Shown here piece after piece: positions 2,002-38,504 of a DNA stretch of 64,000 bases. The first letter of the stretch is position 1, and the number at the start of each line of letters is the position of its first letter. The stretch covers positions 14,828 through 78,827 of the forward strand of contig CAVZYE010000008.1 in the NCBI GenBank assembly GCA_963779385.1, in the 5' to 3' direction. A program made the translations under genes and the position numbers. A model generated the notes under the pieces. The model saw only the letters and a program-made list of their open reading frames with translations, was not told where the DNA came from and ran no database searches. The DNA comes from an uncultured Acidobacteriaceae bacterium. Its GTDB lineage: Bacteria; Acidobacteriota; Terriglobia; Terriglobales; Acidobacteriaceae.

Positions 2002-3661
2002 CTAGATTTCGAGGATTACGGGCATGATCATGGGGCGGCGGCCGGTGGTTTTCTGGATTAGGCGCTTCAGGTCGACGCGGACTTTTTCTTTGACCATGCC
2101 GTAGTCGGATTTTTGCTCGGTGGTCAGGCCGTCGAGGGTCTTGATGACCAGTTCGCGGGCCTGGTCGGTGATGTCTGCGCCGCCAAAGCCGCGCATGACG
2201 ACTTCTGGCTGTTGTTCGACTTTGCCGGTGCGCTTGTTGATGGCCAGGACGGCGAGGACGATGCCGTCTTCGGAGAGAATGCGGCGGTCGCGGATGACGA
2301 GGTCTTCGACTACATCGATGGAGGAGCCGGAGTCGATGAGGATGCGGCCGGCGGTGACTTTGTCTTTTTTGCGGGCGTCGTTTTTGTCGAGTTCGAGAAC
2401 GTCGCCGTCTTCAATGACGATGGCGTGCTCGACTGCGCCGGTTTCCATGCGCGATCTTGGCGTGGTGCGGCGAGATTGCGGTAGTCGCCGTGGACGGGGA
2501 TGAAGAATTTGGGGCGGACCAGGTTGATGAGCAGGCGCTGCTCTTCCTGGCGCCGTGGCCGCTGACGTGGATGAGGCCGTTGGAGCCGTCGTCGAAGATG
2601 ACGTTGGCATCGCGGCGGCTAGAGGTGGTCGATGACGCGGAAGATGCTTTTCTCGTTGCCGGGGATGATGCGGGAGCTGAGGATGACGGTGTCGCCGGCG
2701 TCGATGTGGGCGTGCTTGTGGTTGTCGACGGCGGCGCGGCTGAGGGCGGTCATGGGTTCGCCTTGCGTGCCGCTGATGAGGATCATCAACTGCTCGGGGC
2801 GGATAGTCGCGCATCTGGCCGGGATTGATGATCAGGCCCTGGGGGATGTCGATGTAGCCGAGGTCCTGGGCGATCTCAGTGCTCTCCATCATGGAGCGGC
2901 CGACGATGGCGACTTTGCGGCCATGCTTGCGGGCCAGCTCGAGGGCGATGCGGATGCGGTAGATGGAGGAAGAGAAGCAGGTGAAGAAGAGCTTCTTTTT
3001 GGTTTGGGAAAAGATTTCGTCGAGGCGGGGAATGACGGCGCGCTCGCTGGGCGTGTAGCCGGAGCGCTCGACATTGGTCGAGTCCTGAAGCAGGGCGAGG
3101 ACGCCGCGCTTGCCGTATTCGGCGAAGGTGTGCAGGTCGAAGGCGTTGCCGTCGAGGGGCGAGAGATCGATTTTGAAGTCGCCGGTATGGATGACGACGC
3201 CGACGGGGGTTTCAATGGCCAGGGCGACGCAGTCGACCAGGGAGTGGGTGACGCGGATGGGCTCGATGGTGAAGGGGCCGATGGTGAATTTTTCCTTGGG
3301 GACGATCTCGATGAGGGTGGTTTCGTCGAGCAGGTGATGCTCTTCAAGCTTGCCCTCGACGTAGGCGAGGGTGAACTCGGTGGCGTAGACGGGAACCTTG
3401 AGCTCGGAGAGGATCCAGGGCAGGCCGCCGATGTGGTCCATCGTGGCCGTGGGTGAGGATGATGGCGCGGACGTGCGCCTTGTTTTCAACCAGGTAGGTG
3501 ATATCGGGGACGACGATATCGACGCCGAGCAACTCCGACTCGGGGAACATCAGGCCGGCGTCGATGACGATAATGTCGTCTTCCCAGCGGAGGGCGAGGC
3601 AGTTCATGCCGAACTCGCCGAGTCCGCCGAGAGGGATGATTTTCAGTTTTTTTGTTTGCAT
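2002..3661 (-). CDS. rnj: Ribonuclease J (frameshifted in this assembly)
   Basis: IIPLGGLGEFGMN, THGH.DHIG, HTGDFKID and C-terminal RRPMIMPVILEI spread across several frames. Confidence 0.92.
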
Positions 3662-3860
3662 CTGTCAGGTTTGATGGTAACACCGGCGGGAGAGCATAAG
3701 GAATGTGGATTGGAGGGGGAATTGTGTGCTTTGCGGTCGGTGGTATAAAGGTTCGACGCTGGGGAACGGTGTGGAAGTTGCCGCTATTTCGGAGAGAATT
3801 TCACGGCAATTGATGAACGGGCAGAGGCGGAGTGGAATGGAATTTAGAGAGGGACGCATT

Positions 3861-6800
3861 ATGCGGCATTGGGGCGTAGGAATTCTGGTTGCGGCGGTTT
3901 TGTGGATCGGCGCGGAAGTGGCTGCGAAAGGGCTCCAGGGTGGGCACGGAAAGAGTGCTGCGGGCGCGCCTGGCGCGGCGGTGGATGTGTTGCTGAACGG
4001 CGGCGATTGGCGGATGGGGTCGTTTGTTTTTGGGGCCGGTGTGAAAGCTGGGGCTGAGTCGGTGACCTTTGACGACAGCGGATTTCGCACGGTGACGGTT
4101 CCCGGGGATACGCAGTTGCAGTTGGGTTATACGGGCGAGGAACGGTTTAACGAGAGCAAAGAACTGGTTGGAGTGAACGGCAGGGAGTGGTGGTACCGAA
4201 AGCACTTCAAAGCTGGAGCGAAGGCCGAGGGTGCGGTGAGCCGGCTGGTCTTTGACGGTTCAGATTACTTTACGACGGTGTGGCTGAATGGCCAACTTCT
4301 GGGAACGCATGAGGGGACTTATACGGCGTTTTCTTTCGATGTGGCCGGGGTGCTGCGGTATGGCGGGGAGAACGTGATTGCGGTTCTGGTGACGCATCCG
4401 GTGGCGCCTAAAGGTGGCAGTCTGCTCCAGTATCTGGACGGGAACCTGGGAGGCGAGGCGGACCCGGATGGGATGAGGCTGAAAGATGCGCCTTACTACA
4501 TCGATATCCACTGGGACGCGCTGCCGGCGCAGGGGAATGCGACGTTTGTGATGGGGATTTGGAGGAGCGTTCACCTGCGTACGGAGAGCACGGTGGTGAT
4601 TGGCGATCTGCATGTGGAGACGGAATCTATTTCTGCGGACGGGAGCGCGACGCTGCGTGTGGGGGTGATGCTCAAAAATGCCGGGCAGGAGACGCGCACT
4701 CGGACGGTGAAGCTCGAAGCTAAGGCCGGAGAATTTTAGCGGGGCGACGATGGAGTTGCCTGCGCTGGTGATGAATGCTGCGCCCGGCGAGACCAAGGCG
4801 GAGACAGAGGTGCGCGTGCCGGATGCGCGGCTGTGGTGGAGTTGGGATAAGGGCGCGCAGAATTTGTATTCGCTGGAGGCGGGGATTGACGCTGCGGAGG
4901 GTGATTGGAGCGACCGGCGGTCGGTGGTGTTTGGGATTAGGACCATTTCGCGCGACGCGGATATGGCGTACCGGCTGAATGGGCGAAGGATGTTTGTGAA
5001 GGCTTCGTGGTTTCCGATTGCGGATTTTTACCGGTCGACGCCGACAGCGGAGAGTTATGAGCGGGATTTGCGGCTGTTTCGCGATGGGAACTTCAATTTG
5101 CTGGTGAATTTTACGGTGGTGGAGAAGCCGGAGTTTTACGAGCTGTGCGACCGGCTGGGAATTCTGGTGGTGGTGGAGCTTCCGTTTCCGCAATATGGGC
5201 CGCAGCAGGTGATGGACCAGGGCAACCCATTGCGGGAGTCGTTTCTGAAGCAGGCTGGGTTGCAGGTGAGAGAGATTGTGACGGCGCTGCGCAATCATCC
5301 TTCGGTTGTGGAGTGGGCTCCGCTGGCGGAGGCGCACGAAAAGGCCGGCGGGTGGAGCAATGGGGTGGACCAGCAGGGCTATGACACCTTCATGGCGGAG
5401 ATGAAGTCGATTGTGAGCGAGCTTGCGCCGGGCAGCATCTTTCATCCCAGCTTGTGCGACCTGGGCGAGCAGCACTTCTGGTATGCGGCGGCGGGAATGA
5501 CGGGGCAGACGGGGGACTACCAGGAGATGTTCGACGCAAAGACGGGGTTTGTTTCCGAGTACGGCGGCATCTCGATGTCTTCAATATGAGAATCTGGGCA
5601 AGTATCTGACGCCTGCGCAGCAGTGGGATGAGAAAGCGAGCTTGCCATGGTGGTTCAATTTGCCCATCGATACGGCAGGCTACGCTTACTTGACCAGCTA
5701 CGAGAGTTCCGGTTTGTATAGCATGCTTTATCGCACCGAGCATTTTGTGGATCGCGATCCGAGATCGCCGGCGGAACTGGTGAGCGACACGCAGCTTTAT
5801 CAGGCATTTTTGCTGCGGTATGCGGCAGAGGCTTTCCGGCGTAAGAAGTACGATCCGATCAACGGCATTCGCTCGTGGGATTTTTTGGAGCTGAATCCGG
5901 GATTTCGCTTCGCGATTGTGGATTACGATCGCGTTCCCAAGACTGCTTACTGGTATATGAAGCGGGCGCAGGCGCCGGTGGCGTTGAGCTTTGAATACAA
6001 GGATGCGCTGGAATCGCAGACGGCGGGGAGCCGGTGGTCGGCGCCTGTGTGGGTGATCAACGATCTGGACCGGGAGATTCGCGGGACGGTTCATGCGGAG
6101 CTGCTTTCGCTGAGCGGCGAAAAAGTGGCTGGGGCTGATTTTCCTGTAACGATTGGCGCGGATGGGAAGGGCGTGGCCGGAGAGTTTGCTTTGACTTTGC
6201 CGCAGACGCCGGGAGTTTATGTTTTGCGGGCGACGATGGACGGGGAAGTGGGGCAGGCGGCGGAGGAGACTTCGTTCATCAAGGTTGTGCCGGCGGCGTT
6301 CTCTGGCTCGCATCGCGTGCTGCTGATTGCGCAGCAAAAGTTTGCCGGGCCGATTGGCACGATGCTGCGAGGGATGGGGCTGGATGTGGATGTGTACGAC
6401 GAGAACTCTCTAGACGCGATGGGGCGCGAGCTCGCGGATGGGGCGGCGCTGCGGGCTAAGTATGACGCGATCTGGCTGGGGAGTTTTCAGACGTTGGCCA
6501 AGGTGCTGCCAGCTGAGACCGCAAAGGCGGTGGGCGAGGCGGTGAAGGCCGGTACGGGGTTTATTCATACGGGCGGCGAAGGAAGCTTTCACGGAGGGCT
6601 GGGACGCGCTGCTCTAGTTGAAGCTACCGCGCTGGATGAGGTTTTGCCGGTGGAGATTTCAGGGCGCGCTGACCTTGAGTATGGAGCACACGGCATGGAC
6701 GATGGGCTGCAGACGGAGAATGCGATTCACGAGATTGCTGCGGGGAGCGATGCCGGCGAAGTTTCGCGCGAGGGTTTGGACCTGCTGCGCCGTTATGGGC

Positions 6801-7411
6801 TGATTGGATTTAACCGGGTTACTGCACGGGCGGGGTCGCGCACGGAACTATCGATTGTGGGAGAGCCGCTGCTGGTTACGGGTAAGTATGGAGAGGGCAA
6901 GACGGTTGCGTTTACCGGATTTACTCCGGCGTCGGACGCTTACTCCGCGCTGCCCATTGACGAGTACCTGATTGCCGAGCCGCGGGGGCGGGCTTATTTT
7001 GTTTTGTTTGCGGATATGCTGGCCGCTGTGATGCAGGGGGGGAGCGAGCGTACAAGGGAACTGCTGCATGTGCATGAGAAACCGCTCTTCCAGACGCTCA
7101 AGGAACAGCCGAAGACTCAGGTTACGGTTGCGGAAGTGGGTCCGATTGCGGTGGACGGGGCAGTTGCTCGCTGCCGGATGCACTTGGAGAACCGGAGTGG
7201 GTATGCTCACCTGGTTCACCTGAGAGTGGAGTGGCCGGGGGATGTTTCTCAGCCCTACTTGAGTGAGTTGAGCGATAACGACTTCGAGCTGATGCCTCAC
7301 GAGAGCAGGGATTTGGAATTGGAGTGGCGGGGCTCGAAAGTCGGAGGCCGAGCGAAAGGAACGCTGATTGTGAAGGCGGCCAACTCTGCGGAGACGCGGC
7401 TGACTTTCTAG
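3861..7411 (+). CDS. Secreted GH2-family glycoside hydrolase (beta-mannosidase-like) with C-terminal GATase1-like domain; split by two frameshifts
   Basis: [58 protein letters not shown]; ORFs 3705-4739, 4750-5589 and 5549-7411 are collinear. Confidence 0.85.
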
Positions 7412-8268
7412 CGCAACAGGTCTTCGAGAGTGGTGCTAAGGTCGGTTTTGTCGTCGCGGTATTTTACGATGACGGGGGCGTAGAGCGAGAGGTTCCACTC
7501 AGCGGCGTTGGCGTGGCCTTTGCCTTTGGTGACGGCGCGGGAGCCTGGGACTACCACGGCGTTTTCAGGGACGATGAGGGGCAGGTCGGCTGTGGCGCGG
7601 AGGATTTGACCGTTGACCAGGTCGAAGAGGGGAGTGCCGCGGGTGAGGATGGTTCCGGCGGCCAAGACCGCGCCCTTGCGGACGATGGTGCCCTCGTAGA
7701 CGCCGGAGTTGCCGCCGACCAGTACGTCATCTTCGATCACTACAGGGCTTGCGTTGATGGGTTCTAGGACGCCGCCGATCTGGGCTGCGGCGCTCAAATG
7801 GACGCGCTTGCCGATCTGGGCGCAGGAGCCGACCAGGGCGTGAGAGTCGACCATTGTGCCCTCGTCCACCCATGCTCCGGCGTTGACGTACATGGGCGGC
7901 ATACAGACCACGCCTCGGGCAAGATAGGCGCCGGAGCGGATGGAAGAGCCTCCGGGAACCAGGCGTATGCCATCGCCGGAAGAGAATTGGCGGACCGGGT
8001 AAGTGCTTTTGTCGACGAAGGAGAGGCCGCCTGAAGGCAGTTCTTCAAGGACGCCGAGACGAAAACCGAGCAGGATGCCCTGCTTGACCCATGCGTTGAC
8101 CCGCCAGCCAGTGGGCGAGGCCGGGTCCGGCGAGGCGGCGCGTACTTCACCGGTCTCGAGAGCGGAGCGCAGGGAAAAGAAAGCCGTCATGGCTGATTCG
8201 TCGCCGATGGCGGAGGGTCCCGCGGCAAAGTGGCGCTCGATGGTTCTTTGAAGCTGGCTGAAGGTCAT
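7408..8268 (-). CDS. dapD: 2,3,4,5-tetrahydropyridine-2,6-dicarboxylate N-succinyltransferase
   Basis: [23 protein letters not shown]...IGGVLEP. Confidence 0.95.
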
Positions 8269-8285
8269 GGCAATTTGAGAATAAC

Positions 8286-8335
8286 AGGGACTAAGGGACT
8301 AGGGACTAGGGACTAGGGAATAGGGAATAGGGAAT
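8286..8335. repeat. Heptamer tandem repeat (AGGGACT/AGGGAAT), about 7 units
   Basis: agggact-a-agggact-agggact-agggact-agggaat-agggaat-agggaat. Confidence 0.85.
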
Positions 8336-8429
8336 GAATCTTCTTTGGATGTTTAAGGCGGGGTTCATGGTTGTGGGCGATGTGATTGTTATTCTCGCTT
8401 GGCGAGTTGGCTGGTTTGTTCGTTGGCAC

Positions 8430-8807
8430 TCAGGCTGCGGAGATCAGGGTGGGTTTGGGGAGTGAAGTTTGGGCTGACTGGATAGGTTGCTTTAGCCTGG
8501 AGTGCGCGGCCAGGGAGATGGTTTGCAGGCGAAAGGAATTTTTTCCGGTGGGGATCATGGCCATGGGGAGAGGGGTTCGGTTGGAGTTTCCACGGAAGTT
8601 CTTCGCTTCAAGCCAGGCGCACAGCCTGGGGTCGCATATCTCCGGCCGTCCATGCCAGAAATCGGACGACAGTTCGCACTGAATCAGAAGATGATCGAGG
8701 TGCAACTCGATGACGGTGATGCGCCTGGGGAAGTAACGGCGGACATTGTATGGGCCTATGTGCAGACCGGTCACGGTGAGACCTCTGCTTTGCGTTCTGA
8801 CCACCAT
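8430..8807 (-). CDS. Hypothetical protein (Acidobacteriota-type)
   Basis: MVVRTQ..GLHIG..NVRRYFP...IEL.LDHL.IQC.L..DFW..PEI.DPRLCAWL; start may be further upstream (8870). Confidence 0.7.
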   Translation of the reverse strand: MVVRTQSRGLTVTGLHIGPYNVRRYFPRRITVIELHLDHLLIQCELSSDFWHGRPEICDPRLCAWLEAKNFRGNSNRTPLPMAMIPTGKNSFRLQTISLAAHSRLKQPIQSAQTSLPKPTLISAA

Positions 8808-27998: not shown

Positions 27999-28937
27999 GA
28001 ACTTATCCGTAAATAACAATAGTTTGTCTCCAGCAGATAAGAGCAGCGGCGAGTTGTAGCAGAGCCGTGTAGCTGGCCTCTGTCTTTTCGAAGCTGACCA
28101 GCAGCTTGCGGAAGCGGTTGAGCCAGGAGTGGGTTCGTTCCACCACCCATCGGCGCGGTTTGGAGTCCGGGTAGCGGTACTTGATGAGCCGCTCTTCGGC
28201 GCGTGATTTAACGCGGGGATAGTATTGGTGCTTGCGGGCGATCTTGCTAACTGGGTAGCCGACATAGCCGGCATCCAGACAGAGATATTGGTAGTTTTTC
28301 CATCCTGTAACCTCAGGGCGTTGGACCACGACCTGTGCCAGGGTCCGATCCAGCAGCTTGGAGTCGTGGAGGTTGGCGCCGCTGACGGCGATCGACAGTG
28401 GGAGTCCACGGGCGTCGACCAACAGACTGCGTTTGCGTCCTTTTTTTCCCCCGGTCGGTCGGGTTTCGACCAACACATTCGGTAGCTAGCGGTGCTTTGC
28501 CCATGGCTCCATCGGCTGATTGCCACTGCCAGGCTATGCCGTGCATCCCGTCATACTCGGCCAGCCCAGCCTGCCACAGCTTCTGGAACAAGCCAGCCTT
28601 GTGCCAGTTCTGAAAGTACTGATGCACTGCGCTAGCCGAACCGAACTCCCGGGGCAATGCTTTCCATTGAATGCCGGTCCGCAGAACGTAAACAATCGCC
28701 GAAAAAACTTGTCGAGAAGACATCGGCTTGCGTCCAGCTCCAGCCTTGCGTTGATACGTTCGCCCTGCTTCCCGCTTGCGTACTGGGATCAGCGGCTCAA
28801 CCTTGCTCCACAAATTATCTGAAACCGTCCAAGACTTGATCTGAGCCATATTGAATTCATCATCGCCGCTACCAATCGCTTGCAAATCAGAGATTCAGTC
28901 GCACGCATCAAAGTCGTCACTATTTACGGATAAGTTC
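27999..28937 (-). mobile_element. IS5-family insertion sequence (two-ORF type, 939 bp)
   Basis: Perfect IRs GAACTTATCCGTAAATA / TATTTACGGATAAGTTC; TAA duplication at 27996-27998 and 28938-28940. Confidence 0.92.
28003..28849 (-). CDS. IS5-family transposase in two ORFs joined at a G5A7 run
   Basis: YVLRTGIQW.ALP, WQSADG, PTDRGK; KRSLLVD..GLP, CLDAGY, RWVVERTHSWLNRFR. Confidence 0.92.
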
Positions 28938-33521: not shown

Positions 33522-34040
33522 TTACATGGCTGCTACAAAATCGGGAACGACGAAGGCTGCGTTCTCCTGCAGCAACTGGGTCATGCGGGCTGCCATGCCG
33601 GTATACATTTGAGCGGCACGGTAGGCATTCACTCGGACGCCTTCGCTGGCCTGCGAGAAAGCGTATTGGCCCAGCGCCATGAGAACGCAGAGACGAATCT
33701 GCATGGCGTCGCTGCGCAGGGTTTCAAGCAACAAGCGATCAACATCCTTGCAGTGCCTGGTGGCAAAGTCTGCCATCTCCAGCATCACCTTGGCATTTTG
33801 GAACATTACCCACAGGCCTTTGGGGCCATCCATGCGCTGCCATGCGTCTTCAGGGGTTGCGCTCAATCCTTCTTTCCAAAGGAAATGATCGCTCAACTCG
33901 TGAGCGCTCCAGTCGGGGCGCAGCCGGAGCAAGAGTGAATCCCATGTTTGTGCGTTGCGACGTCTTACTCCATTGCGCCACTTAACGAAGTAGAACGCAA
34001 CGCCTGCAATCGCCGCGAATTGTAGCAGGTACAAAAACAT
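33522..34040 (-). CDS. Hypothetical protein with single N-terminal TM anchor and helical cytoplasmic domain
   Basis: MFLYLLQFAAIAGVAFYFV then basic KWRNGVRRR; RBS AAGGA. Confidence 0.75.
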   Translation of the reverse strand: MFLYLLQFAAIAGVAFYFVKWRNGVRRRNAQTWDSLLLRLRPDWSAHELSDHFLWKEGLSATPEDAWQRMDGPKGLWVMFQNAKVMLEMADFATRHCKDVDRLLLETLRSDAMQIRLCVLMALGQYAFSQASEGVRVNAYRAAQMYTGMAARMTQLLQENAAFVVPDFVAAM

Positions 34041-34320: not shown

Positions 34321-35043
34321 TTAGCGGCTTCGATTTCTATCCATCGCAAACGATGCATTCGTAAAGAGTAAAGTTCGTGATTCCGGCACTCTGGGAGCAA
34401 ATGAATAAATCCAATAGAGGAGCGAACAAATGTAGCTTGCATTCACAGTCAGGTCCAGCAAGTGATACATGGGTCCTACCGTCTGATGGGCATGCAAAAT
34501 GGAAACGGTCAAGGCGACAATGGAGTAAAAGCCGAAACCGGTGATGATGCAGAGTTCACGGCCAGGCCAGCGCGGGCCTAGCAAAGTGCTCCACAAGACA
34601 AGCGCCAGGACGAATCCGGCTCGCAGAATTGAGTAGGCTTGCATATGGGCAAGGATTTTTCCCATGATCGTGCAGTATGCCGGCTCCGTCCATGCGGCCG
34701 TTTGCCAGATTACGACAGCGGCAATCGGGAACAGCAGAGCAAGAAAAAGCGGCCCCGGTGATCTGGCACGATTGTGACGCCGGACGGATCTGGCCAGTTC
34801 CGTCAGGATTCTGAACTGATAGATTGCGTCGATCGTCAATTGAATCAGATAAAGCAACAGATACTTCTGAGGCCCGAGGAACAACACGATTCCGCCAGCG
34901 AGATCAATGCAGACATTCCAACCCATATAGAGGGTGAAGACCGGAAGCGTCCGATAGATGCGCTGGCGAGCAAGCATGGAGAGAAGAGCTGTCTACATGA
35001 GGAAGCAGGCCAGGAAAATTATGTGGTCCGTGCTGTCCAGCAT
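34321..35043 (-). pseudogene. ~7-TM membrane protein, paralog 2, with in-frame TAG at codon 17
   Basis: ATG at 35043 overlaps the upstream TGA; MLDSTDHIIFLACFLM*TALLSMLARQR...; aligns with 35043-35834. Confidence 0.65.
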
Positions 35044-35834
35044 CAAAGTTCCCGCGATTTACTCGATTTGGCGGCAATAGAGTCCGTCAGTCCTACGCGA
35101 GTGGATCTTGCAGCTCCGGCGACAGCCAGGAGGAGATTCTGCATTTGGGGAGTGAATTCTCGACGCACGGCCTCTTTCTGCGCGAAACTGTAAACCCAAT
35201 ACATCAAGGAGCAGACGTAGCTGGCCACTACGACCTGGTTCAGGTGAGCGTACAGCGACCACGCAGCGAGGTGTGTATGCAACATCGCCACGCCAAGGCT
35301 GACAAGGGAAAAGAAGCCAAGCCCGGTGGCCACTTGCAACTCGCGATCTCGCCAGCCGATCGAAAGCAACTGGCCGCATCCAACCAGCAACAGGAAGAAT
35401 AAAACTTGAAGAATCGAGACAGTTTGCTGTAACCGCATCAGAAGATGCCACTCTGGCGGTAGATAGCTGAACCCTGGGATGACTGCAAAGGGCCAAATTA
35501 CTGCGCCAAGCACCATGACCAATCCCGCAACCATCGCCAAAAAGCCACGCGGCAGAGAGGCCCGGAACGGCCGGAACACGGACCAGGCCAGCTCGATCAG
35601 CACCCCGAATACCAGGCCCGAATCCACAATCATAGCGGTTAAATATGCCGTGAGATAACGGGCCGGAAAGAAGCGGAGGATTACATACGACAACACGGCG
35701 GTGCTGAAGAGATCCCAGGCACAGTACGCACATAATAGCGGTAGGCTTCTCCAGACGCGCCGATAGAGGAGCAGCCCAACAACTGCTGCCTCGGTCACAA
35801 CATAAGCAAGCGAAAGTGCGTTGTCCAGACTCAT
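35043..35834 (-). CDS. ~7-TM membrane protein, paralog 1 (putative peptide receptor or processing factor)
   Basis: About seven hydrophobic segments; R.LP, EL..SV, W..REL...TG.GF, SY.CSL.YW..SFA shared with paralog 2. Confidence 0.8.
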   Translation of the reverse strand: MSLDNALSLAYVVTEAAVVGLLLYRRVWRSLPLLCAYCAWDLFSTAVLSYVILRFFPARYLTAYLTAMIVDSGLVFGVLIELAWSVFRPFRASLPRGFLAMVAGLVMVLGAVIWPFAVIPGFSYLPPEWHLLMRLQQTVSILQVLFFLLLVGCGQLLSIGWRDRELQVATGLGFFSLVSLGVAMLHTHLAAWSLYAHLNQVVVASYVCSLMYWVYSFAQKEAVRREFTPQMQNLLLAVAGAARSTRVGLTDSIAAKSSKSREL

Positions 35835-35911
35835 CGCCGGGATTGCGTACACACAGAACTAAGAGCTGAGTTGAGTGTAGCAGTCAATCCAGCCCGCCAG
35901 ACGGCGACGGA

Positions 35912-36280
35912 TTATATGGCCATGCTTGGCGGCGGAGGCGGCGTTGGGAATGGGCTGCCAGGATATGCGCTGGCGACAACCATGCTCGGCGGCGGTGGCG
36001 GCGTCGGGAATGGGCTGCCAGGATATGCGCTGGCTGCAACCATGCTCGGCGGCGGAGGCGGCGTCGGGAATGGGCTGCCAGGATATGCGCTGGCTACAAC
36101 CATGCTTGGCGGCGGTGGCGGCGTCGGGAATGGGCTGCCAGGATATGCGCTGGCGACAACCATGCTTGGCGGCGGTGGCGGCGTCGGGAATGGGCTGCCA
36201 GGATATGTGCTGGCGATAACAAAGCTAGAACATGCAATAAAAACGGCAATAACAGCAACTAAACGAACTCTCGCGTTCAT
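35912..36280 (-). CDS. Secreted precursor with five tandem 20-aa Pro-rich peptide repeats
   Basis: RBS AGGAG; signal peptide MNARVRLVAVIAVFIACSSFVIA; 5x S(A/T)YPGSPFPTPPPPPSM. Confidence 0.8.
   Translation of the reverse strand: MNARVRLVAVIAVFIACSSFVIASTYPGSPFPTPPPPPSMVVASAYPGSPFPTPPPPPSMVVASAYPGSPFPTPPPPPSMVAASAYPGSPFPTPPPPPSMVVASAYPGSPFPTPPPPPSMAI
35921..36220. repeat. 60-bp tandem repeat x5 (coding)
   Basis: Exact 60-nt period visible; differences mostly at wobble positions. Confidence 0.95.
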
Positions 36281-36339
36281 GACGTACTTCTCCTGTCTGG
36301 AACAGCTACGGATAAGCCTAACCCTAAAGGTGTAAATGG

Positions 36340-36677: not shown

Positions 36678-37041
36678 ATGAACGAATTGAAGCCTGGACC
36701 AACGCCGCCGACTGCTCTGCACGAGCCCGTTGCCTCTCAACAGGAAGTGCGTTGCGCGGTGCGTTTTCCGCTGGCGCTGCCGGTGGTGCTGTCGACCGGC
36801 AACGGAGAGATTGCCGCGCTGACCCGGAATGTCTCCGCCAGCGGCGTGCTTTTTGAGCTGGACAGCCCGGTTGGAAGTGGGGCTGGAGATTCGATTTTCC
36901 CTGCGCATGCCGGGTGCGGTTCTGGGTACTCCCCACGATGTTCTGGTTCATTGCCAGGGACGTGTGGTACGCTGCTCAAAGAGCCAAAGTAACTATCTGG
37001 CTGCCGCCACGATCGACGAGTATCAATTCGCCGAGCAGTGA
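36678..37041 (+). CDS. PilZ-domain protein (frameshift near 36872)
   Basis: RCAVR (RxxxR) and NVSASG ([D/N]xSxxG); GRVVR. Confidence 0.85.
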
Positions 37042-37072
37042 CGGCGCTGGAGTAGGCCTGGCAAGCACCTCT

Positions 37073-37831
37073 ATGGACGGATTTCTTGGACGATTCGTCC
37101 GAAGGCGAGATCCTTGACGCTACCGGTCAAGCCGGGGACGATCCGCATTATTCTTGCGGATTCGCAGGCGATTTACCGCGTCGGCATTCGCAAGGTTTTC
37201 GCGCTGGAAGACGATCTGCGCGTCGTGGCCCAGGCCGATTCACTGGAGAATCTGCGCGCGGCCATCGAGCGCTATCCCACCGACATCGTTCTGCTGGAGG
37301 GCAGCCTGCTGGCCGGCACGGCCAACGTCATTCCCGACCTGCTGCGCGCATCGCCCCCGACGTGAAGCTGATTGTGCAGGCCGTGGCGGCCGACGAGAAC
37401 CACACCGTGGAGCTCTACCGGCGCGGCGTGCGCGGCATCATCTCGCCGCTCCATCTCGCCCGACCTGCTGGTGCGCTGCGTGCGCCGCATCGCCGCCGGC
37501 GAAACCTGGATCGACAACCAGTCGGTGAACTGGGTGATCGAGGCCTATCGCGCCCAGGCCGCCGCGCTGGTGAGCCCGCGCACCCAGCCCCGGCTCTCGC
37601 CCAAGGAGATGGCCATCATCACCTGCATCACCCAGGGCAAGCGCAACAAGGAGATCGCCTTCCAGCTGGGAACCACCGAGCAGGTGATCAAGAATTATCT
37701 GCGCAAGATCTACGACAAGCTGGGCGTCAGCGACCGGCTTGAGCTGGCTCTCTATTGCCTGCACAACAAGATCATTCAGACCGATGCGGATGAAGTACTG
37801 GTGGCGCAAGAAGCTGGTTGCCGAGGAGTAG
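37073..37831 (+). CDS. NarL/LuxR-family response regulator with atypical receiver (frameshifted)
   Basis: IRIILADSQAIYRVG; DIVLLEG; HTH LSPKE...G.RNKEIA..LGTTEQVIKNYLRKIYDKLGVSDR. Confidence 0.88.
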
Positions 37832-37864
37832 GAAGGGCGCTTCATCGAGATACTATTTCAGAGC

Positions 37865-37888
37865 GAGGGCGGCTGAAGCCGCCCTCGT
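37865..37888. terminator. Hairpin between convergent genes
   Basis: CGAGGGCGGC-TGAA-GCCGCCCTCG. Confidence 0.65.
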
Positions 37889-37900
37889 TTATTGGTGCCG

Positions 37901-38504
37901 ACTACTGCTTTCGACGATTTCCAGCTCGATGGTGAGATCGACGTCGTCGCCAATCATGGCCGCGGGAACGCCGGTTCAGGTGACCGAAGGCATTTCGGCG
38001 ATGGTGGTAGCAGCTCGATAACCGGAGTCGAGCCTCGCGGTCCTTCAATGCCTAGACCGGCGTGCTGGGGCCTTCCAATCGAGGCGACGCGGCGTCGTGA
38101 CCGGTGCACGGTCAAATCGCCTGAGACGGATCAGCTTGCTGCCGTTCTTTAGCCACGCCAGGTGCCGGTAAGGTGGCGGTGGCGGAATTTGGCGACTTCA
38201 AATATTTCTCGCTGGCTAGGTCAGCCATCGCGGGCGGCGACGCCGGTGTTTACGGTATGACATCGATGGTGGCCTTGACCGTGGACCTGGTGACGTCGGC
38301 CTCGTCGTAGACGAGGGTGGCATTCACGTTGCCAAAGCGACCATGGACGTTGGAGACTGCAAAATGCCGAATGGAGAAGTCCACCTCGCTGTGGTTCGGA
38401 TCGGACGATTCCAGGTGGAAGATTGCGCCAGGGCCAAGGTGCGCCGCGAACGCCAATATGCTAGCTATCAGAGACAAACGCATCACGAGAGAAATTCCTT
38501 TCAA
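37901..38504 (-). CDS. YceI-family protein (badly error-ridden or degraded)
   Basis: DPNHSEVDFSIRH.AVSNVHGRFG, V.ATID; remainder only partly readable. Confidence 0.75.

Follow-up and report, generated by a model that had tools for sequence, protein, structure and literature searches.

Peptide pheromones are known mainly from Gram-positive bacteria, where they are read by TPR proteins or by histidine kinases, with the AgrC/ComD type representing the membrane histidine-kinase peptide sensors. Among the closest described systems are the duplicated Phr propeptides of the Bacillus Rap-Phr pairs. According to the available text of the reports concerned, signal peptidase makes the first cut in these propeptides and leaves the others to WprA, Bpr, and NprE (PMC11343458), the duplication is intragenic and has been likened to fungal pheromones (PMC5199041), and such propeptides have been found by mass spectrometry without their N-termini (PMC7425212). 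As described there, Phr cores are five to six residues long, occur about twice per precursor, are re-imported through Opp, and act on a cytoplasmic receptor, all within Gram-positive bacteria. A second close system is the fungal alpha-factor/Ste2 pair together with the KEX2-processed repeat proteins, which, in the available part of the paper describing them, carry 1-16 repeats with a mean of five in Ascomycota (PMC6339444).

Here, we describe a gene cassette of an uncultured Acidobacteriaceae bacterium, located in the window, that is, the whole 64,000-nucleotide stretch of DNA that was analyzed. The cassette consists, in this order, of a precursor gene, a gene for an unnamed seven-helix protein (7TM protein), and a gene for a one-helix partner, and its relatives are found in Terracidiphilus and other Acidobacteriaceae. 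Judged by sequence, the precursor is likely the source of an undescribed bacterial peptide signal. The features of the locus are the following:

36290..36294, minus strand: Shine-Dalgarno-like AGGAG, with the ATG 9 bases further on (sequence)
35912..36280, minus strand: precursor ORF of 122 residues, with a signal peptide, five 20-residue units, and a short tail (ORF list)
36212..36280, minus strand: predicted Sec signal peptide, residues 1-23 (hydropathy, judged by rule)
35920..36220, minus strand: tandem array, 5 x 60 bp (Tandem Repeats Finder)
36161..36205, minus strand: core 1, residues 26-40, which fits x-P-x-x-P-hydrophobic-P (sequence)
36101..36145, minus strand: core 2, preceded by the spacer VVASA (sequence)
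36041..36085, minus strand: core 3, preceded by the spacer VVASA (sequence)
35981..36025, minus strand: core 4, preceded by the spacer VAASA (sequence)
35921..35965, minus strand: core 5, preceded by the spacer VVASA and followed by Ala-Ile-stop (sequence)
35043..35834, minus strand: unnamed 263-residue protein with seven helices and a long C-terminal helix, of predicted GPCR-like fold, a candidate receptor (AlphaFold2, fold searches)
34321..35043, minus strand: second 7TM paralogue, diverged to 35% identity, whose codon 17 is an in-frame TAG (sequence)
33522..34040, minus strand: 172-residue protein that combines a single N-terminal helix with a helical bundle, a candidate cytoplasmic partner (AlphaFold2 model)

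As far as the available text of the reports on Phr105 and Phr3T describes them (PMC11343458, PMC5199041), the cassette shares with Rap-Phr a Sec signal peptide, identical or near-identical tandem cores, intragenic duplication, a gene that adjoins that of its partner, a short spacer (four residues in Phr105), and, in the processing proposed below, a first cut that would be made by signal peptidase and later cuts that would be made by other proteases. The precursor and 7TM genes form an adjacent pair, as in RRNPP systems, with export and a receptor role as the putative parallels. The cassette differs in its proline-rich cores, in its 2-16 copies, in its diderm host, and in its neighbor, which is a seven-helix membrane protein without a TPR match. 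With alpha-factor/Ste2 and the KEX2-processed repeat proteins, as they appear in the available text (PMC6339444), it has in common the signal peptide, an optional pro-region, and repeats; it differs in that a conserved KR/RR spacer site and sequence similarity are lacking, that G-alpha (PF00503) gave no match in the 83%-complete genome, and that one cassette holds the genes for both the precursor and the candidate receptor. Dibasic KR, RR, and KK sites are absent from the precursor of the window, and KK occurs only in the spacers of L121 and L125. AgrC/ComD-type sensors differ by their kinase domain; the 7TM protein, at 263 residues and ending in one helix, has no kinase family match. No output domain was identified for the cassette. 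Having no TPR receptor, conserved dibasic site, or kinase domain, the cassette is a member of neither the Phr nor the alpha-factor/Ste2 system, and by analogy it would resemble duplicated Phr in processing and alpha-factor/Ste2 in layout. In Pfam and NCBIfam, the 7TM protein and the partner had no family match over the cut-off and the precursor had no match; an Atlas search of the 7TM protein and the partner gave no family, and literature searches, in which subscription journals were mostly not covered, listed no paper on the cassette.

The 7TM gene was detected in 116 of 150 genomes of the same genus (E 1e-20) and in 83 of 120 sampled genomes of the same family, a tally that includes the unpublished genome G002, which is used for no other claim. 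The family is a major one in soil. In a phylum-wide sample of 150 genomes, it was found in 9 of 11 family members and in the one member of another family in the class, with a weak match in three of eight members of a third family and none found in the rest. A profile search with the 7TM protein returned 4,067 representatives at 50% clustering. When the best 80 loci of 306 matches were inspected, an ORF with a signal peptide and a Pro-rich product lay upstream of the 7TM gene at 69 of them; among the 11 loci without a precursor call, the upstream sequence ends within 518 bases at 10 and is interrupted by an assembly gap at 1. The partner gene is present at 59 of the 80 loci. Distant subfamilies have single-core precursors of 38-67 residues, often with a Cys pair, encoded upstream or downstream of the 7TM gene, and several of these combine a pro-segment with a second small-residue site before the core. 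The genome of the window itself carries a second pair, whose single-core precursor of 56 residues has a Cys pair and, besides a pro-segment, a second site of small residues:

G000 contig C17, 7TM gene 1366-2262 and peptide gene 2380-2550, both minus strand: second pair in the genome, locus L163 (locus reading)

At another locus (L145, 690-1323, minus strand), three near-identical single-core peptide genes stand in tandem downstream of one 7TM gene, which appears to be whole-gene duplication in place of intragenic repeats.

In the window, Tandem Repeats Finder scored the 60-bp unit of the precursor gene at 532 (5.0 copies, 95% matches), and the remaining three arrays of the 64 kb at 53-73. The 15-residue core, YPGSPFPTPPPPPSM, is the same in all five units, while units 2-5 vary at five sites, of which four are third codon positions and the fifth is the Val/Ala difference of the spacer, in agreement with the preliminary description of an invariant core with varying wobble positions. 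The signal peptide has Arg4 and Arg6, a hydrophobic stretch at residues 7-23 (hydropathy 3.3 over residues 7-17), V-I-A at -3 to -1, and Ser at +1. With a basic n-region, an h-region, small residues at -3 and -1, and no Pro at +1, the first junction conforms to the signal peptidase I (SPase I) rule and resembles Ala-X-Ala substrates in its n-, h-, and c-regions and its V-x-A, and the internal junctions repeat the -3/-1 residues: FVIAST precedes the first core, and MVVASA (three times) or MVAASA (once) precedes the later ones. All four internal junctions thus fit the V-x-A/A-x-A site that had been described as re-created in front of each core. The first and second junctions are equal at 17 of 21 bases in the seven codons preceding Tyr, so the c-region and the spacer are evidently homologous DNA in this gene, and the spacer resembles the c-region in this lineage because of that homology. 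An alternative A-S-A site two residues further on fits the later copies but not the first junction (A-S-T). The precursor is likely an exported multi-core protein. Among public contigs of the locus (4 of 21 runs), two break at the array, contig X8 skips 180 bases of it, reflecting either an assembly collapse or a two-copy allele, and contig X2 has a higher depth over part of it (122 vs 33-46).

From loci L001-L138, 88 unique complete precursors were kept for comparison; identical duplicates, assembly-gap records, the false calls L026 and L029, the frameshifted L060, and the unpublished L028 were dropped. Junction statistics use 83 or 84 multi-core genes, that of the window included, which are not independent because most of them come from one genus. 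Of the 88 precursors, 84 are multi-core, with 2-16 copies (mode 6). The repeats had at first been read as dosage amplification of one active peptide, which is plausible with such copy numbers. With position 0 set at the first Pro after the longest Pro-free spacer, 94% of 83 genes have Pro at +3 and 84% have it at +5, with a hydrophobic residue at +4, and the core pattern common to the family is x-P-x-x-P-hydrophobic-P with species-specific residues. There are 65 distinct cores in 74 genes, and the later copies are all of one core type in 71 of 84. Behind the last core, 58 of 84 genes have a tail that falls short of the spacer length, and in 65 of 84 the tail starts like a spacer. Spacers, which are Pro-free by definition, are composed of Ala (28%), Ser (13%), Gly (11%), Val (9%), and Thr (9%), with Lys (5%) and Arg (2%) as the basic residues; unit length ranges from 12 to 29 residues, and the spacing is not fixed. 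The family offers dozens of natural peptide/7TM pairs that are open to synthesis and cross-testing.

Three precursors (L088, L045, and L031) contain two different cores and could represent intermediates in a shift of specificity. We rejected the idea that the cores mimic plant CLE peptides, a comparison that began from the Pro spacing of the latter: x-P-x-G-P-x-P is found in only 18 of 74 cores and is absent from YPGSPFPTPPPPPSM, and His occurs in 3 of 74. The preliminary description had also expected translation of the precursor to depend strongly on EF-P. This follows from known biology, as EF-P rescues ribosome stalling at PPP according to the available part of the source (PMC4176338), and the genome contains two EF-P matches (G000 C12:66979-67146 and C2:511933-512100). 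EF-P dependence is not a feature of the cassette system as a whole, however, because PPP is present in only 27 of 84 precursors.

For the route from precursor to signal, the reading that we prefer, at about even confidence, is that a single SPase I cut would be followed by cuts of other proteases, which would free Pro-protected cores as ligands of the 7TM protein. The precursor would be exported through Sec and cut first by SPase I after Ala23. Periplasmic or extracellular proteases that prefer small or hydrophobic residues could then cut the Ala/Val/Ser-rich spacers, and trimming would halt at the prolines of the cores, as would be expected from the behavior of proteases in general; spacer length would in that case be unimportant. 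More copies would give more peptide per transcript, up to five per precursor in the window, and the cores would bind the outer face of the 7TM protein, which would pass the signal on via the one-helix partner. Trimming of the Ste13/DPP-IV type was not adopted, because DPPIV_N matched the genome only weakly and in fragments and because removal of X-Pro would eat the conserved core start. Next to the cassette, the 64-kb window showed no protease gene, and a promoter/terminator scan gave chance level.

A different reading, which we consider unlikely, dispenses with the later cuts: only the signal peptide would be removed, and the uncut tandem cores would be a multivalent ligand of the 7TM protein, with repeats that raise avidity or vary neutrally. 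The spacers would be compatible with this, as they have no conserved motif and vary in length within one gene, down to two residues, and so would the unlike copy numbers of genes that share identical cores (6 vs 11, 7 vs 8). On the other hand, small residues are enriched before later cores over shuffles, single-core relatives exist, some with a pro-segment that would need a second cut, and unit lengths of 12 to 29 residues without fixed spacing speak against an avidity ligand.

If the precursor is cut repeatedly, as we favor, the later cuts could be attributed to SPase I itself or to other enzymes. The preliminary description had allowed for SPase I or a dedicated protease, and we now regard it as improbable that SPase I recuts at each internal V-x-A or A-x-A site. 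In the available text of the sources, SPase I depends on small P1 and P3 residues (PMC4704075), and a membrane-anchored h-region appears essential for orienting its substrates (PMC4704075; PMC9360617). In favor of repeated SPase I cuts, all four internal junctions in the precursor of the window obey the -3/-1 rule and share homology with the c-region, 14 of the 37 relatives of the test set below keep a compatible site throughout, and the genome encodes three S26 peptidases (G000 C10:77554-78015 and C2:1384221-1385736, two in tandem) that could make them. All three, however, are read from their sequences as ordinary membrane-anchored SPase I, although a specialized SPase paralogue among the peptidases of the genome is possible, and the internal sites differ from SPase I substrates in having no h-region before them: the 11-residue hydropathy is at most 0.7 over residues 22-68 (two repeat units), compared with 3.3 in the signal peptide.

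The relatives break the rule in many cases. In the cleanest test set, 37 precursors with [AV]xA/X-Pro directly before the first core, the later junctions all fit the -3/-1 rule in 14, never fit it in 13, and are mixed in 10; in the 16 of these genes whose receptors are <70% identical, 6 fit throughout and 5 never do. P1 before the later cores of the 37 genes is Ala in 54%, Phe in 21%, Ser in 6%, Met in 6%, Leu in 5%, Thr in 4%, and Asp in 3%, so that Phe, Met, Leu, or Asp occupies it in about a third. The commonest spacer has two residues in 10 of 84 genes, and in seven of the ten it is Ser-Phe after Pro. A spacer that is a DNA copy of the c-region (at least 14 of 18 bases) was found in only 2 of the 63 genes in which the first core follows the signal peptide, namely the gene of the window and L059, its closest complete relative. 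When internal junctions are read in the X-Pro register, they follow the -3/-1 rule at a rate of 0.53 vs 0.34 in spacer shuffles, and a strict [AV]xA lies within four residues at 0.45 vs 0.27. A permissive site of any kind within four residues, which every junction has in 66 of 83 genes and which would speak for SPase I, occurs at 0.86, near the shuffled rate of 0.75; it is lacking somewhere in 17 genes, and 4 have no site at all.

Across relatives, the signal-peptidase-like motif before each repeat is thus a tendency and not a rule. The re-created site is real in the lineage of the window but is not the design of the family, because the c-region copy is restricted to 2 of 63 genes and 13 of 37 never fit. 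From the earlier proposal, repeated cutting by a dedicated or general second protease stays plausible, while SPase I as a rule does not hold. What is new here is this family-wide test of the signal-peptidase-site idea, which fails as a rule, together with the Phr precedent for later cuts; peptide searches should accordingly allow for X-Pro starts with ragged ends, beyond A-x-A sites.

The candidate receptor was modeled with a pLDDT of 89.9 (AlphaFold2, 123 sequences). Basic motifs follow helices 1, 3, 5, and 7, which points to an N-out/C-in topology, and with sides assigned in this way, 90%-conserved columns number 56 of 142 on the inner side and 13 of 103 on the outer side. The matches listed by Foldseek for the model are all of GPCR type and weak (best E 0.029, TM 0.31-0.49). 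In a VIA-align search of 48,161 chains, the top 50 listed are all GPCRs or GPCR-like, the best with Z 12.7, rmsd 4.7, and 197 aligned residues, where Z lies below the tool's caution level of ~13 for helical bundles, so that a common arrangement is possible; no microbial rhodopsin or peptidase is among these 50. Ste2 aligned with Z 10.2, rmsd 4.9, 209 aligned residues, and 8% identity. With LYCHOS/GPR155 (its GPCR-like domain), the oxytocin receptor, and adhesion GPCRs, the model shares seven helices (residues 1-222), the predicted N-out/C-in topology, and an amphipathic C-terminal helix; it differs in an identity of 4-12% and an rmsd of 4-5 A, with Z values common for helical bundles, and homology to them is at most putative.

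Similarity between cores goes along with similarity in the outer half of the 7TM protein (partial rho 0.32) but shows no relation to the inner half (0.00), and none of 200 random column splits was as high; for 40 receptors <70% identical, the values are 0.25 (outer) vs 0.06 (inner). In controls, the signal peptide of the full set tracks the outer half too (partial 0.24), and matched variable columns gave 0.31 vs 0.19. At the 48 loci with a partner gene, outer (0.24) and inner (0.23) are equal. The genomes compared are kin. This covariation of peptide and receptor lends weak support to the ligand reading. A complex prediction of 7TM residues 1-235 with precursor residues 24-60 scored 0.00, with a partner-chain pLDDT of <50 in at least one run and controls that were unfolded, and speaks neither for nor against binding. 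The one-helix partner, with a mean column identity of 74%, tracks the inner half of the 7TM protein more than the outer half (0.44 vs 0.25 at the 48 loci); Foldseek found no fold match for its model (best E 0.41). A partner paralogue, 62% identical, lies on contig C18 of the genome (5405-5932), where the stretch 3500-8500 gave no call of a precursor or 7TM gene.

The tight linkage of the 7TM gene to the precursor could also mean that the 7TM protein serves to process, modify, or export the peptide as a dedicated enzyme and is not its receptor, and helix 3 does contain an invariant Glu81 and a frequent Asp71. We give this little credence. The conserved residues lie on the predicted cytoplasmic side, away from an exported substrate, with a variable outer face, and the 7TM protein matched no peptidase, transferase, or transporter family, none of which is found among the 50 best fold matches either.

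If the 7TM protein is a receptor, the cassette would encode a bacterial peptide sensor with a GPCR-like fold, bearing on the origin of GPCR-type signaling. The wider proposal, which we advance only tentatively, is a family-wide peptide-hormone system in which multi-copy, Pro-rich propeptides with species-specific cores would be matured outside the cell, the receptor would stand alone and have a true GPCR fold, and the signal would reach the one-helix partner and not a kinase or G protein, as a counterpart, and possibly a relative, of Ste2/alpha-factor.

The second 7TM copy (34321..35043) is likely a pseudogene. Its TAG looks real because contigs of runs X2, X6, and X8 cover the stop without differences. 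A stop is also present in the second 7TM copies of genomes G268, G213, and G214, which suggests that duplicated 7TM genes often decay.

It is very improbable that the product stays tethered, whether it be a lipoprotein anchored at Cys17 or a polyproline protein with a structural role in the envelope. Cys17 fits only the broad form of the PROSITE lipobox pattern, as do 18 of 84 precursors (14 strictly). The lipobox Cys is, however, not conserved in the family: 49 of 84 precursors have no Cys at positions 13-35, in 17 of 84 the Cys is not part of a lipobox, and L059, the closest complete relative, breaks the lipobox. A structural role is unfitting for the very short single-core relatives, which have only 38-67 residues.

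We give almost no probability to a plus-strand gene in the Gly-rich frame 35871-36335. This frame does run open over 154 codons, and changes between the repeats are synonymous there as well, but only 21 of 83 related precursors keep the in-register antisense frame open, and the minus frame has a ribosome-binding site and a signal peptide on the same strand as the downstream genes. The minus frame was chosen because of the AGGAG before its ATG, the signal peptide, and this distribution of the antisense frame, and the preliminary assignment of the coding frame is upheld. Variation at wobble positions was not accepted as proving which strand codes, because the antisense frame changes in an equally synonymous manner (15 synonymous and 3 non-synonymous pairwise changes, against 13 and 3 in the minus frame).

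Divergent from the cassette, at 36678-37935 of the plus strand, lie a small gene, which we take to be PilZ-like, and a gene for a LuxR/NarL-type regulator, both frameshifted. Public contigs show indels near 36868, 36990, and 37344-37357, which implies assembly errors or strain differences in these two genes. PilZ-like and LuxR/NarL regulator genes flank the cassette at 53 and 36-37 of the 80 related loci, respectively, and are candidates for its output. On the minus strand at 28003-28885, two overlapping ORFs presumably represent a split IS5-type transposase, and the overlapping frame of this element recurs in many places in the genome.
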